DNA of 9,431 bases from a virus (taxonomy: Duplodnaviria > Heunggongvirae > Uroviricota > Caudoviricetes). Below are positions 1,778-9,431 of the stretch, piece after piece; positions within the stretch are counted from its first letter, which is position 1, and each line of letters opens with the position of its first letter. A model generated the notes under the pieces. The model had not been told where the DNA came from, did not search any database, and saw only the letters and a list, made by a program, of their open reading frames with translations. The position numbers and the translations under genes were made by a program. The stretch spans positions 1 through 9,431 of the IMG/VR virus record IMGVR_UViG_2778261165_000011. The stretch is one strand, 5' to 3'.

Positions 1778-1938
1778 ACAGCTCCCCGTTTATTATTTAT
1801 CTCCTCAGCCAGCCGCTGTGCTTTCAGGGGATTTCGGATAACAGAAAGGCCGGGAAATACCCAGCCTCGCTTCGTAACGGAGTAGACGAAAGTGATCGTG
1901 CCTACGCGGATATTATCGTGAGGATGTTTCATCGCCAT
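1750..1938 (-). CDS. Small early protein, lambda orf60a-like
   Basis: 62-aa ORF immediately downstream of exo on the minus strand. Using the third codon (M at 1932) gives the 60-aa form with an ATGA-type overlap with the exo stop. Confidence 0.45.
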
Positions 1939-2609
1939 TGCTCCCCAAATACAAAACCAATTTCAGCCAGTGCCTCGTCCATTTTTTCGATGAACTCCGG
2001 CACCATCTCGTCAAAACTCGCTATATACTTTTCATTCCGCTCAATCACGACATAATGCAGGCCTTCACGCTTCATACGCGGGTCATAGTTGGCAAAGTAC
2101 CAGGCATCTTTTCGCGTCACCCACATGCTGTACTGCACCTGGGCCATGTAAGCCGACTTTATGGCCTCGAAACCACCGAGCCGGAATTTCATGAAATCCC
2201 GGGAGGTAAACGGGCATTTCAGCTCAAGGCCATTGCCGTCACTGCATAAACCATCGGGAGAGCAGGCGGTGCGCATACTTTCGTCGCGATAGATGATCGG
2301 GGATTCAATAACATTTACGCCGGAAGTGAACTCAAACAGGGTTCTGGCGTCGTTCTCGTACTGTTTTCCCCAGGCCAGCGCTTTAGCGTTAACTTCCGGA
2401 GCCACACCGGTGCAAACCTCAGCCAGCAGGGTGTGGAAGTAGGACATTTTCATGTCAGGCCACTTCTTTCCTGATCGGGGCTTTGCTATCACGTTGTGAA
2501 CTTCTGAAGCGGTGATGACGCCGAGCCGTAATTTGTGCCATGCATCATCCCCCTGTTCGACAGCTCTCACGTCGATCCCGGTACGCTGCAGGATAATGTC
2601 CGGTGTCAT
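1929..2609 (-). CDS. exo: Lambda exonuclease (Red alpha), 5'-3' dsDNA exonuclease
   Basis: 226-aa ORF, near-identical over its full length to recalled lambda Exo ([65 protein letters not shown]... FVFGEQWR). Start overlaps the bet stop. Confidence 0.95.
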
Positions 2610-3391
2610 GCTGCCACCTTCTGCTCAGTGGCTTTCTGTTTCAGGAATCCAAGAGCTTTCACTGCTTCGGCCTGTGTCAGTTCTGACGATGCGCGAATGT
2701 CGCGGCGAAATATCTGGGAACAGAGCGGCAATAAGTCGTCATCCCATGTTTTATCCAGGGCGATCAGCAGAGTGTTAATCTCCTGCATGGTTTCATCGTT
2801 AACCGGAGTGATGTCGCGTTCCGGCTGACGTTCTGCAGTGTATGCAGTATTTTCGACAATGCGCTCGGCTTCATCCTTGTCATAGATACCAGCAAATCCG
2901 AAGGCCAGACGGGCACACTGAATCATGGCTTTATGCCGTAACATCCGTTTGGGATGCGACTGCCACGGTCCGGTGATTTCTCTGCCTTCGCGGGTTTTGA
3001 ATGGTTCGCGGCGGCATTCATCCATCCACTCGGTAACGCAGATCGGATGATTACGGTCCTTGCGGTAAATCCGGCATGTACAGGATTCATTGTCCTGCTC
3101 AAAGTCCATGCCATCAAACTGCTGGTTTTCATTGATGATGCGGGACCAGCCATCAACGCCCACCACCGGAACGATGCCATTCTGCTTATCAGGAAAGGCG
3201 TAAATTTCTTTCGTCCACGGATTAAGGCCGTACTGGTTGGCAACGATCAGTAATGCGATGAACTGCGCATCGCTGGCATCACCTTTAAATGCCGTCTGGC
3301 GAAGAGTGGTGATCAGTTCCTGTGGGTCGACAGAATCCATGCCGACACGTTCAGCCAGCTTCCCAGCCAGCGTTGCGAGTGCTGTACTCAT
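2606..3391 (-). CDS. bet: Red beta single-strand annealing protein
   Basis: 261-aa ORF matching recalled lambda Bet ([86 protein letters not shown]...). Confidence 0.95.
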
Positions 3392-3396
3392 CCGTT

Positions 3397-3693
3397 TTAT
3401 ACCTCTGAATCAATATCAACCTGGTGGTGAGCAATGGTTTCAACCATGTACCGGATGTGTTCTGCCATGCGCTCCTGAAACTCAACATCGTCATCAAACG
3501 CACGGGTAATGGCTTTTTTGCTGGCCCCGTGGCGTTGCAAATGATCGATGCATAGCGATTCAAACAGGTGCTGGGGCAGGCCTTTTTCCATGTCGTCTGC
3601 CAGTTCTGCCTCTTTCTCTTCACGGGCGATCTGCTGGTAGTGACGCGCCCAGCTCTGAGCCTCAAGACGATCCTGAATGTAATAAGCGTTCAT
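3397..3693 (-). CDS. gam: Gam, RecBCD inhibitor (98-aa GamS form)
   Basis: 98-aa ORF matching recalled lambda GamS ([21 protein letters not shown]...[10 protein letters not shown]). The longer GamL frame is not intact here (see findings). Confidence 0.9.
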
Positions 3694-4894: not shown

Positions 4895-5167
4895 TCATCT
4901 TGCTGTCAGCTGTTTGGATTTCCTGTAGCCTGCCGCGTAAATGGCTACATTTGGAAGACAAGTTGAGCCTTCATATTTTCTGGTCAACGTTGTCAGTGTT
5001 ATTACTTCTGCTCTCATTACTGGTTTGCGTTTGCATTGTAAGACCACTCGTGAAGGGGTTGGCCTGTGTAGTTTGTCAGAGCTGATCGCCTCCTGACTTT
5101 GCAGGTTTGCACGACGAGCTCTACGGCGAGAAGCTGCGGTGCCTTTAAATTCTGTTTTTCTGGACAT
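4895..5167 (-). CDS. N: N-like transcription antiterminator (non-lambda type)
   Basis: 90 aa from the internal ATG at 5167, preceded by GGAGG at ~6-nt spacing. N-terminal arginine-rich motif MSRKTEFKGTAASRRRARRANLQ. First gene downstream of the predicted PL and nutL. The supplied 114-aa ORF is an N-terminal over-extension. Confidence 0.65.
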   Translation of the reverse strand: MSRKTEFKGTAASRRRARRANLQSQEAISSDKLHRPTPSRVVLQCKRKPVMRAEVITLTTLTRKYEGSTCLPNVAIYAAGYRKSKQLTAR

Positions 5168-5265
5168 AGATTCCTCCCGAATAAACTTTGGCGATGCAAT
5201 CTCGAAGCTCCTCCTGAGCCGGTTGCTTCGGCATTGCATCCCACAGCTTATGTGGTTGGGTGGTC

Positions 5266-5349: not shown

Positions 5350-5386
5350 ATGATTAAATAGTACGATATGTACTTTATCTGGTCAA
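5350..5386 (-). promoter_or_regulatory. PL candidate promoter
   Basis: Minus-strand TTGACC (-35, 5386-5381), 17-nt spacer, TACTAT (-10, 5363-5358); about 40 nt upstream of nutL. Confidence 0.5.
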
Positions 5387-5570
5387 TACGATTTGTTCTA
5401 TTGAGGGGTGGTTTTTTACAACGCTTTGTATTTAATAGTGTTGTTTTTTAGCGTGGGTGTATTGCCTCGGCGATGTAGGGAGAGATCAGAATTGCGTTGT
5501 TTAGTGAGTTGTATCTATTAATTTTAAAATAAATACAATTGGTTATGTGTTTTTTTGGGGGCGTTAGGCA

Positions 5571-5595
5571 AAGAAAACCCGGCGCGGAAGCCGGG
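5571..5595 (-). terminator. Intrinsic terminator ending the cI-side leftward operon
   Basis: Stem cccggc (5578-5583) / gccggg (5590-5595) with loop gcggaa. On the minus strand the hairpin is followed by UUUUCUUU; it lies 5 nt after the stop of the 177-aa ORF. A T-run on the plus side (5606-5611) suggests weak bidirectional activity. Confidence 0.6.
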
Positions 5596-5600
5596 TTGTC

Positions 5601-6134
5601 TCATTTTTTAGTTTGCTTTGGATTCGGTTTGTCTCTTCTTCCAATTATAAACACGCTAGTTAAAGCAACTAACTCAGCACCAAGAAGCCCGGTAGCCCAG
5701 CCATAAGCCTCGTGCTGAATCATCTTGTAAGCAATTCCTGCGAAAACAAAGACAGAAGTCATCGCAAAGATCTGTCCGAGTCGATCTCGCCAAATTGCTC
5801 CCCTCTGTCCTGCTTTGTAATACTCGTGTCTGTGTTTTTGCTCAGCCTTAGCCATGTCCATTATTTCGCGAGCGAATCCTGGAGATATTCTTTCGTACTT
5901 AGCTAATTCGTCAGCGTCTGGGAGTGGCCCTGATCTAGTGTGAGTCACCTGCATCATGATGCCAGCTAGATCTGGCCTGTCCATGAGGCGCTCAAGAACT
6001 TGAGGGTTCTTTGCGACCTCATTTATAAGCAGTTCGGTTTTACCGTCTTGAACTCGCCCTAACGGAGTTGGTTGGTTAACAAGATTTCTCGGGGCGGCGG
6101 TTTGAAGCTTTCTTTGGGATTTTTTTCTGCTCAT
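5601..6134 (-). CDS. Hypothetical membrane protein with two C-terminal TM helices, at the position of lambda rex
   Basis: 177-aa ORF: basic N-terminus (MSRKKSQRKLQTAAPR), charged central region (ELAKYERISPGFAREIMDMAKAEQKHRHEYYKAGQ), then IFAMTSVFVFAGIAYKMI and WATGLLGAELVALTSVFIIG. No similarity to recalled RexA or RexB. Weak Shine-Dalgarno; possibly translationally coupled. Confidence 0.55.
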   Translation of the reverse strand: MSRKKSQRKLQTAAPRNLVNQPTPLGRVQDGKTELLINEVAKNPQVLERLMDRPDLAGIMMQVTHTRSGPLPDADELAKYERISPGFAREIMDMAKAEQKHRHEYYKAGQRGAIWRDRLGQIFAMTSVFVFAGIAYKMIQHEAYGWATGLLGAELVALTSVFIIGRRDKPNPKQTKK

Positions 6135-6297
6135 TATCAGTTACAGCGTCTCTAACGTAACTACCTACCTTAACCCAATCTGAGTTGATAAGGTCGATGT
6201 CTGTAGCATTTGAATGATACTCGCTGTAGCTACCTGCTGGGCAAAGGTCAAGGATAGAGCCCATAGCGCTGAAAAAGTGCTTTGCAGATTTTTTCAT
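6076..6297 (-). CDS. Hypothetical 73-aa soluble protein, first gene of the cassette downstream of cI
   Basis: ATG at 6297 preceded by AGGA about 8 nt upstream; MKKSAKHFFSAMGSILDLCPAGSYSEYHSNATDIDLINSDWVKVGSYVRDAVTDNEQKKIPKKASNRRPEKSC. Its 3' end overlaps the 177-aa ORF start by 59 nt in another frame. Confidence 0.4.
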   Translation of the reverse strand: MKKSAKHFFSAMGSILDLCPAGSYSEYHSNATDIDLINSDWVKVGSYVRDAVTDNEQKKIPKKASNRRPEKSC

Positions 6298-6485: not shown

Positions 6486-7145
6486 CTACCCAAACGTCTC
6501 TTCAGGCCACTGACTAGCGATAACTTTCCCCACAACGGAACAACTCTCATTGCATGGGATCATTGGGTATTGTGGGTTTAGTGGCTGTAGAAACACCTGA
6601 CCGCTATCCCTGATCAGTTTCTTGAAGGTAAACTCATCACCACCAAGTCTGGCTATGCAGAAATCGCCGGGCTCAACAGCTTGCTCTGGGTCAACCAGAA
6701 TTAACATCCCGTCAGGAAAACTAGGTTTGGAACCTGTTGGTGCGGTCATTGAGTTACCTTCAACCTCAAGCCAGAATGCAGAGTCACTGGCTTTTTTGGT
6801 TGTGCTTACCAATCTCTCCGCATCGCCTTTGGTAAAGGTTCTGAGTTCTGGAGAGAACATCCCAGCCTGAACATGAGAAAAAACAGGGTACTCATATTGT
6901 TTTTTAACTGGGGCCGATGAGTATTCGCCAACAGGTGAAAATGTCCCGTCGTGGTTGAATGATATGTTATCAATACCAAGGTATTTAAACACCACACCAA
7001 TATCACTAAGAGATGGATGACGAGATCCGCGCAACCAGTGTCCAATTCCACCCTGCGTCATACCTAGCTCTTCGGCTAACTTCTCTTGAGTTATGCCGAG
7101 CTCTTTCATTCTGGATCTAGCCAGTTCATACCATTTCATTTTCAT
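6486..7145 (-). CDS. cI: cI-family prophage repressor: non-lambda HTH N-terminal domain fused to a lambda-type S24 autocleavage C-terminal domain
   Basis: C-terminal ~135 aa ([29 protein letters not shown]...[12 protein letters not shown]) nearly identical to recalled lambda cI. N-terminus ([40 protein letters not shown]...) is a different HTH. Start placed at ATG 7145 (or 7139); the 256-aa track ORF over-extends into the operator region. Confidence 0.9.
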
Positions 7146-7256
7146 GTCCTTATTATTACGCTCTGTACTGGAACCATCCATGCACAATGTGTATTTTTTG
7201 CTTGTGTTTAATGAGTACATATTGTATTTTTTATTTGTGGTTACTATGGAGGGCAT
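7146..7256. promoter_or_regulatory. OR region with divergent PRM/PR promoters and candidate operators
   Basis: 111-bp gap between divergent cI and cro. Contains two ~20-bp direct repeats, aatgtgtattttttgcttgtg (~7186-7206) and tattgtattttttatttgtgg (~7220-7240), plus TACTAT and a GGAGGG Shine-Dalgarno just before the cro ATG. Exact operator boundaries not resolved. Confidence 0.5.
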
Positions 7257-7472
7257 ATGAGCAACCTACGAAAATATCGAGAGTCACTGAATATCTCTCA
7301 AACAACACTTGCTAAGGCAGTTGGATGCACACAGGGAGCTATCGGACATTGGGAATCTGGTCGTCGCTTCCCAGACCTTAAAACATGCCGTGCTCTTGTT
7401 GCGTGTCTAAACAAGTTAGGCGCAAAAGTAAGTCTTGATGATGTGTTCCCGCCGGAGCACAAAGCTGCTTAA
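7257..7472 (+). CDS. cro: Cro-like HTH repressor
   Basis: 71-aa ORF divergent from cI with GGAGGG Shine-Dalgarno; [28 protein letters not shown]. Recognition-helix motif TQG.IGHW is shared with the cI N-terminal domain. Confidence 0.8.
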
Positions 7473-7613: not shown

Positions 7614-7910
7614 ATGGAACGAACAAGTTACAGCAAACTATCACAGCGTGACGTTGATCGCGCAGAAACAGATTTACTCATCAACCTATCAACGCTTACC
7701 CAGCGCGGTCTGGCAAAGATGATTGGCTGTCATGAATCGAAGATAAGCAGAACGGACTGGAGATTTATTGCTTCGGTCTTGTGTGCTTTCGGAATGGCAT
7801 CAGACATCAGTCCGATTAGCAGGGCTTTTAAGTATGCGCTTGCTGAAATCACAAAGAAAAAATCCCCGGCCGCCACCGAGGATTTTAAGCAAATTGATAT
7901 GCAATTCTGA
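7614..7910 (+). CDS. cII: cII transcriptional activator
   Basis: 98-aa ORF. C-terminal part (...ITKKKSPAATEDFKQIDMQF) resembles recalled lambda cII (...TNKKRPAATERSEQIQMEF). Positioned between cro and O, overlapped by the oop terminator. Confidence 0.8.
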   Translation: MERTSYSKLSQRDVDRAETDLLINLSTLTQRGLAKMIGCHESKISRTDWRFIASVLCAFGMASDISPISRAFKYALAEITKKKSPAATEDFKQIDMQF

Positions 7911-7942: not shown

Positions 7943-8838
7943 ATGACAAATACAGCCAAAATACTCAACTTCTGCAGAGGTAACTTTGCCAAACAGGAGC
8001 GTAATGTGGCAGATCTCGATGATGGTTACGCCAGACTATCAAATATGCTGCTTGAGGCTTATTCAGGCGCAGATCTGACCAAGCGACAGTTTAAAGTGCT
8101 GCTTGCCATTCTGCGTAAAACCTATGGGTGGAATAAACCAATGGACAGAATCACCGATTCTCAACTTAGCGAGATTACAAAGTTACCTGTCAAACGGTGC
8201 AATGAAGCCAAGTTAGAACTCGTCAGAATGAATATTATCAAGCAGCAAGGCGGCATGTTTGGACCAAATAAAAACATCTCAGAATGGTGTATCCCTCAAA
8301 ACGAGGGAAAATCCCCTAAAACGAGGGATAAAACATCCCTCAAATTGGGGGATTGCTATCCCTCAAAACAGGGGGACACAAAAGACACTATTACAAAAGA
8401 AAAAAGAAAAGATTATTCGTCAGAGAATTCTGGCGAATCCTCTGACCAGCCAGAAAACGACCTTTCTGCGGTGAAACCGGATGCTGCAATTCAGAGCGGC
8501 AGCAAGTGGGGGACAGCAGAAGACCTGACCGCCGCAGAGTGGATGTTTGACATGGTGAAGACTATCGCACCATCAGCCAGAAAACCGAATTTTGCTGGGT
8601 GGGCTAACGATATCCGCCTGATGCGTGAACGTGACGGACGTAACCACCGCGATATGTGTGTGCTGTTCCGCTGGGCCTGCCAGGACAACTTCTGGTCCGG
8701 TAATGTGCTGAGCCCGGCCAAACTCCGCGACAAGTGGACCCAGCTCGAAATCAACCGTAACAAGCAACAGGCAGTCGTGACAGCCAGCAAACCAAAACTC
8801 GACCTGACAAACACAGACTGGATTTACGGGGTGGATTT

Positions 8839-8842
<4 letters not shown>
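7943..8842 (+). CDS. O: Replication initiator O
   Basis: 299-aa ORF near-identical to recalled lambda O (MTNTAKILNF...NTDWIYGVDL); contains the iteron origin internally. Confidence 0.95.
8291..8420. repeat. ori-lambda: four ~18-bp iterons plus adjacent AT-rich region
   Basis: tccctcaaaacgaggga (8292-8308), tcccctaaaacgaggga (8312-8328), tccctcaaattggggga (8337-8353), tccctcaaaacaggggga (8359-8376), then acaaaagacactattacaaaagaaaaaagaaaagattatt. Confidence 0.85.
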
Positions 8843-9425
<583 letters not shown>

Positions 9426-9431
9426 TAGCTT

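Follow-up and report, generated by a model that had tools for sequence, protein, structure and literature searches.

How should we read a phage repressor that carries the C-terminal domain of lambda cI on a DNA-binding domain that is not that of lambda? The question is raised by positions 6486-7472 (987 bp) of a stretch of 9431 nucleotides, which we refer to as the window. An earlier note, made from the sequence alone, saw here a new, heteroimmune specificity created by recombination between repressor domains. We are confident that the region is instead an intact copy of the lambdoid immunity module of the VT2-Sakai (Sp5) type, which combines CI2c with Cro4 in the typing of Smith et al. (2012; PMC3430580).

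The open reading frames and Pfam matches identify the window as the early region of a lambdoid prophage, with the following genes.

1929-2609, minus strand: exo
2606-3391, minus strand: bet
3397-3693, minus strand: gam
4895-5170, minus strand: N (Pfam N_peptide)
5601-6134, minus strand: gene for a DUF2335 membrane protein, homologous to VT2-Sap23
6076-6297, minus strand: open reading frame of 73 aa that overlaps the DUF2335 gene
6486-7145, minus strand: cI repressor gene (open-reading-frame list; Pfam HTH_3 and Peptidase_S24; 100% amino-acid identity to cI of AP005153)
7257-7472, plus strand: cro, encoding an all-alpha HTH_3 protein of 71 aa (Pfam HTH_3, E = 4e-12)
7614-7910, plus strand: cII
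7943-8842, plus strand: lambda-like O
from 8839, plus strand: P

Overall the window is closest, at about 97%, to lambdoid coliphages without Stx, among them 2B8, PhiR11_1 and ev017. The DUF2335 gene and the overlapping 73-aa frame sit downstream of cI, in the place of rexAB in lambda, and are followed by a GC-rich hairpin (5576-5597) with T-runs on both strands. A DUF2335 gene likewise follows cI in Salmonella phage Oslo.

Over its 987 bp the region is 98.1-98.2% identical to Stx2 phage 1717, YYZ-2008, the Stx1-converting phage AP005153, Stx2 phage II and the PA-series O157:H7 phages. Both of its proteins, cI and Cro, match their AP005153 counterparts at 100% of residues, and a leucine at lambda position 129 is among the shared residues; the two phages are separated by nine changes in cI, all of them synonymous, and by seven intergenic differences. 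The proposal of a newly created specificity therefore has to be given up, as both proteins are those of the known type shared by VT2-Sakai and the Stx1 phage. VT2-Sakai, VT1-Sakai, AP005153, Stx2 II and 1717 resemble the window in having six operators in the same places, the same type of cII and DUF2335 in the rexAB position, and Cro4 is common to 1717, Stx2 II and VT2-Sakai (Smith et al., 2012; PMC3430580). Unlike the Sakai-type Stx phages, the phage around the module is a lambdoid without Stx whose Red, O and P genes are lambda-like. The type is widespread: of 5426 complete E. coli genomes, 776, about one in seven, contain 80% or more of the 987 bp.

The module is also already known from the literature, where the chimeric nature of the repressor has been noted since 2000. 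According to the summary in PMC10742460, Fattah et al. (2000) found the homology between the CI proteins of VT2-Sakai and lambda to be high in the C-terminal and low in the N-terminal part, and a lambda-like C-terminus on a unique N-terminus is described in print by Smith et al. (2012; PMC3430580). The module does not belong to imm-lambda, having no lambda-type N-terminal domain with its arm, no lambda operators and no lambda Cro.

The prophage around the module is damaged. At 9304-9431 the P protein departs from lambda P after '...SNAHYWL': the end of an IS100/IS21-family element interrupts the gene at about 9304, and matching sequence occurs in thousands of E. coli records. Given this interruption the prophage is probably replication-defective, and the immunity switch may now control a defective prophage. 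An identical 987 bp is found in the chicken E. coli O80:H26 isolate EC-107 (NZ_CP043217.1, 4594056-4609042), in a different copy of this prophage type that has decayed further: IS100 has inserted between cro and cII, and O/P contains IS3-family elements.

It is possible, although we think it rather unlikely, that the module is itself a relic in a defective prophage, with cI and cro kept as a superinfection-immunity or regulatory cassette and no working lysis-lysogeny switch. The truncation of the lambda-like P would be in keeping with such a fate, as would the multiple IS elements found in this part of the prophage in the genome with the identical 987 bp, and the VT2-Sakai prophage is a precedent, being non-inducible and carrying a stop codon in its own cI (Smith et al., 2012; PMC3430580). 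Here, however, cI, cro, cII, N, PL and the six operators are all intact and nine of the nine differences from the cI of AP005153 are synonymous, which argues for continued purifying selection or recent function. A relic would in any case be compatible with our main explanation of how the module works, as a lambda-like switch with the specificity of the VT2-Sakai type.

The extent of cI needs some comment. The earlier note placed the left end correctly. An open reading frame of 256 aa reaches 7256, but this frame overlaps OR; its first 37 codons span OR1-OR3 and it is unannotated in most records, and we rejected it as cI. Translation would start at ATG 7139, giving 217 aa, or at ATG 7145, giving 219 aa. 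A Shine-Dalgarno sequence, AAGGA (7147-7151), lies 7 nt upstream of ATG 7139 and is well spaced for this codon, which would serve longer transcripts of the PRE type; the corresponding 654-nt version of cI is the one annotated in FJ188381 and in RefSeq. In EC-107 the PGAP annotation starts cI at an upstream ATG equivalent to window position 7181 (231 aa). The gene is built in two parts.

6489-6896, minus strand: lambda-type linker and C-terminal domain (CTD), 136 codons, corresponding to mature lambda residues 101-236
6897-7139, minus strand: non-lambda N-terminal HTH_3 DNA-binding domain and proximal linker (NTD), 81 aa

That the CTD is essentially that of lambda is borne out by alignment with NC_001416, in which 135 of the last 136 residues are identical. 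The sole amino-acid change is W129L (mature lambda numbering; codon 6810-6812). At the DNA level 383 of 408 nucleotides agree, and 24 of the 25 differences are synonymous. Since so few of the differences change the protein, the segment is, by its pattern of substitution, a lambda-type allele under strong purifying selection and not lambda's own copy. Its PDB matches are 3BDN, 8GMU, 2HNF and 1F39, and the Pfam match to Peptidase_S24 has E = 1.1e-28. Lambda A111-G112, S149 and K192 have their counterparts in A92-G93, S130 and K173, in invariant columns of the alignment. The protein is a member of the LexA/lambda CI family, combining HTH_3 with a Peptidase_S24 domain that has the Ser/Lys dyad and the Ala-Gly site. 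The identity of 135 of 136 residues to lambda 101-236, which takes in all of the cleavage determinants, suggests that it would undergo RecA-stimulated self-cleavage. The leucine that takes the place of lambda Trp129, in the hinge that leads into the CTD, occurs in the window and in AP005153; the tryptophan is kept in the related alleles 720R6 and phi458 and in Salmonella phage Oslo.

The N-terminal part is a different HTH, as the earlier note had it: an 81-aa domain of the HTH_3 family (Pfam, residues 9-56, E = 1.9e-10) that lacks the N-terminal arm of lambda cI and is 17 residues shorter at this end. It is weakly similar to the lambda domain (phmmer E = 4.5e-4 to 1LLI; about 12 of 26 residues identical across helices 2-3). 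The domain is 100% identical in 56 phage records, and its next distinct relatives are the cI proteins of Salmonella phages, at about 51%.

Cro, preceded by the Shine-Dalgarno sequence GGAGG (7248-7252), is 100% identical to the 'putative cro' of AP005153. It is not lambda Cro: Pfam assigns it to HTH_3, its PDB matches are 28TN and the P22 C2 N-terminal domain, the alignment with lambda Cro is poor, and the all-alpha HTH_3 protein differs from the fold of lambda Cro. The cI NTD and the HTH of Cro are 35% identical over 62 aa (BLASTP E = 1e-12) and, judged by this similarity, are paralogous domains. The recognition helix reads TQGGIGHW in cI and TQGAIGHW in Cro, so that both forms of the shared motif recognized earlier are present; the shared helix is consistent with the suggestion that the two proteins read the same operators. 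The arrangement has well-known counterparts in 434 and P22, in which the repressor NTD and Cro, likewise paralogues built on an all-alpha HTH and having recognition helices that resemble each other, compete for one set of two-fold symmetric operators. The 434 and P22 pairs have low sequence similarity to that of the window (E ~0.01) and different operator sequences.

How the two parts of cI came together can be read from the edges of the similarity to lambda. The left end is the stop codon (TAG in the window, TGA in lambda). The right end, located by alignment of the two cI genes, is the codon boundary 6896/6897, equivalent to lambda residues 100/101; this point is inside the linker between the domains, and the Ala111-Gly112 cleavage site follows ten residues later. 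Past each of the two ends, an identity of about 94% at the nucleotide level gives way to sequence that cannot be aligned. The NTD is nearest to cI of the Salmonella phages epsilon34, g341c and Oslo (51%) and the CTD is nearest to lambda (99%, against 80% for these phages). A lambda-like patch with sharp edges at the stop codon and in the linker, together with an NTD that groups with Salmonella phages and a CTD that groups with lambda, supports recombination, homologous or illegitimate, at the domain boundary, as the earlier note had proposed. The Salmonella repressors (epsilon34, g341c and vB_SosS_Oslo) are colinear with the 217-aa cI of the window, with 51% identity in the NTD, 80% in the CTD and an alignable linker; over the whole protein the cI of Oslo is 68% identical. 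The Cro proteins of these phages are 45% identical to that of the window, and the Salmonella modules likewise have operators of the TAC-N5-GTA type, centred 26 and 33 bp apart, and a DUF2335 gene downstream of cI. Their recognition helix, TKGAVSHWLNG, differs from that of the window, and their CTD is not lambda-identical.

The CTD has a history of its own. Two sub-lineages of the Sakai type, one represented by the window and the other by 720R6 and phi458, differ at 35-38 of 408 nucleotides in the CTD and at 12-13 of 243 in the NTD. The lambda CTD is 23-28 of 408 nucleotides from either sub-lineage, shares variant sites with them patchwise and lies inside the nucleotide diversity of the Sakai-type CTDs, with 25-27 of 408 differences to either sub-lineage set against 38 between the two. 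The CTD coding sequence thus looks like a pool that has been repeatedly exchanged between repressors of the lambda and Sakai types. The CTD distances do not polarize the event, and neither type is marked by them as 'the hybrid'. Among the phage records inspected, a sample of those with a CTD identity of 95% or more, 720R6 and phi458 are of the Sakai type and Berryhill of the lambda type, and a third class of NTD on a lambda-type CTD was not found.

A history without recombination is very improbable. In it the NTD of a lambda-like ancestor would have changed where it stood, driven by selection for a new specificity, with the CTD held constant. Such a history would account for NTDs that are still detectably homologous (the phmmer match and helices 2-3 noted above) and for the conservation of lambda Q44. 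This history does not fit the change, within a few bases, from about 94% nucleotide identity with nearly all differences synonymous to unalignable sequence, nor the mirror image of this change at the stop codon. The NTD and CTD trees also disagree, the Salmonella relatives with 51% identity in the NTD having a CTD at 80%, and, as the nucleotide distances show, lambda and the Sakai-type alleles have stretches of the CTD in common in a patchwork. We therefore retain recombination at the linker.

The operators were placed by reference to the VT2-Sakai list in Table S1 of PMC10742460 and to the annotation of AP005153, both of which give 17-bp sites with a TAC-N5-GTA core; OR1-3 and OL1-3 have also been tabulated for the VT2-Sakai phage type by Yin et al. 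(2015; PMC4587872). The set below is thus a prediction carried over from database annotation.

5359-5375: predicted OL1, TAGTACGATATGTACTT, same as the published VT2-Sakai OL1
5384-5400: predicted OL2, CAATACGATTTGTTCTA, one substitution (position 7) relative to the published VT2-Sakai OL2
5417-5433: predicted OL3, TACAACGCTTTGTATTT, same as the published VT2-Sakai OL3
7154-7170: predicted OR3, TATTACGCTCTGTACTG, same as the published VT2-Sakai OR3 and the AP005153 annotation, invariant in four alleles
7180-7196: predicted OR2, ATGCACAATGTGTATTT, same as the published VT2-Sakai OR2, with the central positions alone varying among alleles
7213-7229: predicted OR1, GAGTACATATTGTATTT, same as the published VT2-Sakai OR1 except for G in place of A at position 1

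All six published VT2-Sakai operators have a counterpart at the syntenic position in the window, four of them identical and two, OR1 and OL2, one base apart. The window holds six exact TAC-N5-GTA cores where 0.95 would be expected, and seven matches to the extended operator motif against 0.58 expected; five of the seven are in OR and OL, and none of 200 shuffles reaches seven. When four allelic intergenic regions are aligned, variation is found in one of 30 half-site columns and in 11 of 31 spacer columns (Fisher p = 0.0026). The predicted half-site is n-A-(G/A)-T-A-C. The centres are 26 bp (OR2-OR3), 33 bp (OR1-OR2), 25 bp (OL1-OL2) and 33 bp (OL2-OL3) apart, in contrast to spacings of 23/24 and 24/20 bp in lambda; Salmonella phage Oslo has TAC-N5-GTA operators with exactly the 26/33-bp spacing.

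The absence of lambda-type operators noted earlier held in both searches of the window: there is no match with three or fewer mismatches to 17-mers of the TATCACCGC type, which is that of the lambda operators, and matches to the lambda half-site are not enriched, with none inside OR or OL. In EMSA, lambda CI bound VT2-Sakai operators only at 3.7-6.4 uM, whereas 0.2-0.35 uM sufficed with OR1 and OL1 of lambda (PMC10742460), values that fit a distinct operator specificity.

The T-rich direct repeat to which the earlier note drew attention exists, as two 21-nt copies on the plus strand (7190-7210 and 7223-7243, 33 nt apart) that are identical at 18 of 21 positions; it corresponds to the right half-sites of OR2 and OR1 with their downstream flank. 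That flank, including TTGTG, is unconserved in allelic phages with the same or a near-identical recognition helix. It is scarcely credible that cI and Cro read direct repeats of the form TGTATTTTTT-N-TTGTG as their operators, for, real as the 21-nt repeat is, its two copies are the only ones, both being in OR and none in OL, its conserved portion is just the right half-site of OR2 and OR1, the TTGTG element varies as described, and dimeric HTH_3/S24 repressors bind two-fold symmetric sites, of which TAC-N5-GTA provides one at each of the six expected places. The operators are, on our reading, the TAC-N5-GTA pseudo-palindromes.

Three promoters can be proposed in relation to these sites.

5358-5386, minus strand: candidate PL, TTGACC-17-TACTAT, directed toward N (4895-5170), from a consensus scan with 9 of 12 matches
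7153-7180, minus strand: putative PRM, TGGATG (7180-7175)-16-TAATAA (7158-7153), placed by hand and coinciding with the maintenance promoter of AP005153
7202-7230, plus strand: putative PR, TTGTGT (7202-7207)-17-TATTTT (7225-7230), assigned by hand and equivalent to the 'major rightward promoter' of AP005153

In the consensus scan of the window PL was detected, and PR and PRM scored too low to pass; for PRM this is what one would expect of a weak, activator-dependent promoter. OL1 covers the -10 element and spacer of PL, and OL2 overlaps its -35 element. OR1 overlaps the -10 element of the putative PR, OR3 lies over that of PRM, and the centre of OR2 is at -43 of the putative PRM start (-42 in lambda). 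With PRM placed in this way, the predicted start is at or near A7145, which would make the cI mRNA leaderless, as it is in lambda. The intergenic differences from AP005153 are unevenly spread, six of the seven falling at 7194-7213, in the -35 region of the putative PR between OR2 and OR1; with the cI and Cro proteins unchanged, the cluster may represent a promoter-strength variant.

The layout resembles that of lambda in the divergent order cI-OR-cro, in the three operators each at OR and OL, in a near-identical linker and CTD from residue 101 with the cleavage site and catalytic dyad, and in a probably leaderless PRM with OR2 at about -42/-43. The analysis shows the gene structure, the identities, the domains, the operator motif with its enrichment and conservation, and PL; we infer operator occupancy, the positions of PR and PRM, cooperativity and induction. 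The module would act as a lambda-like bistable switch, in which CI dimers use the arm-less HTH to occupy OR and OL and so repress PR and PL. From OR2, CI probably also activates PRM: acidic residues of helix 2 are kept at the positions of lambda E34 and D38 (lambda 'SQESVADKMG'), which makes positive autoregulation likely. The lambda-type linker and CTD would supply dimerization, dimer-dimer cooperativity, the Ala-Gly site and the Ser/Lys dyad. Pairwise cooperativity of the lambda kind through the identical CTD is not guaranteed at OR1-OR2, where the centres are 33 bp apart rather than the 24 bp of lambda, and we regard it as uncertain. Since the CTD retains the cleavage site and the dyad, SOS-activated RecA should trigger self-cleavage at Ala-Gly and induction should work as in lambda. 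Cro would then occupy the same operators, presumably with a different order of preference.

Whether the type deserves to be called heteroimmune is uncertain, as PMC10742460, in its summary of Fattah et al. (2000), reports cross-immunity between VT2-Sakai and lambda. One speculative explanation, which we consider doubtful, is that in cells with both prophages the repressors of the lambda and Sakai types form mixed dimers or tetramers, and that this cross-talk underlies the cross-immunity rather than shared operators. Mixed oligomers are possible because the dimerization and cooperativity domain is essentially identical in the two types.

As a discovery the module carries little weight. Its immunity type belongs to the commonest found in prophages of E. 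coli, the Shiga-toxin phages of O157:H7 Sakai among them. It is nevertheless a clean textbook example of modular exchange at the inter-domain linker of a repressor. Mixed oligomers, if they do form, could couple the induction of otherwise independent prophages.
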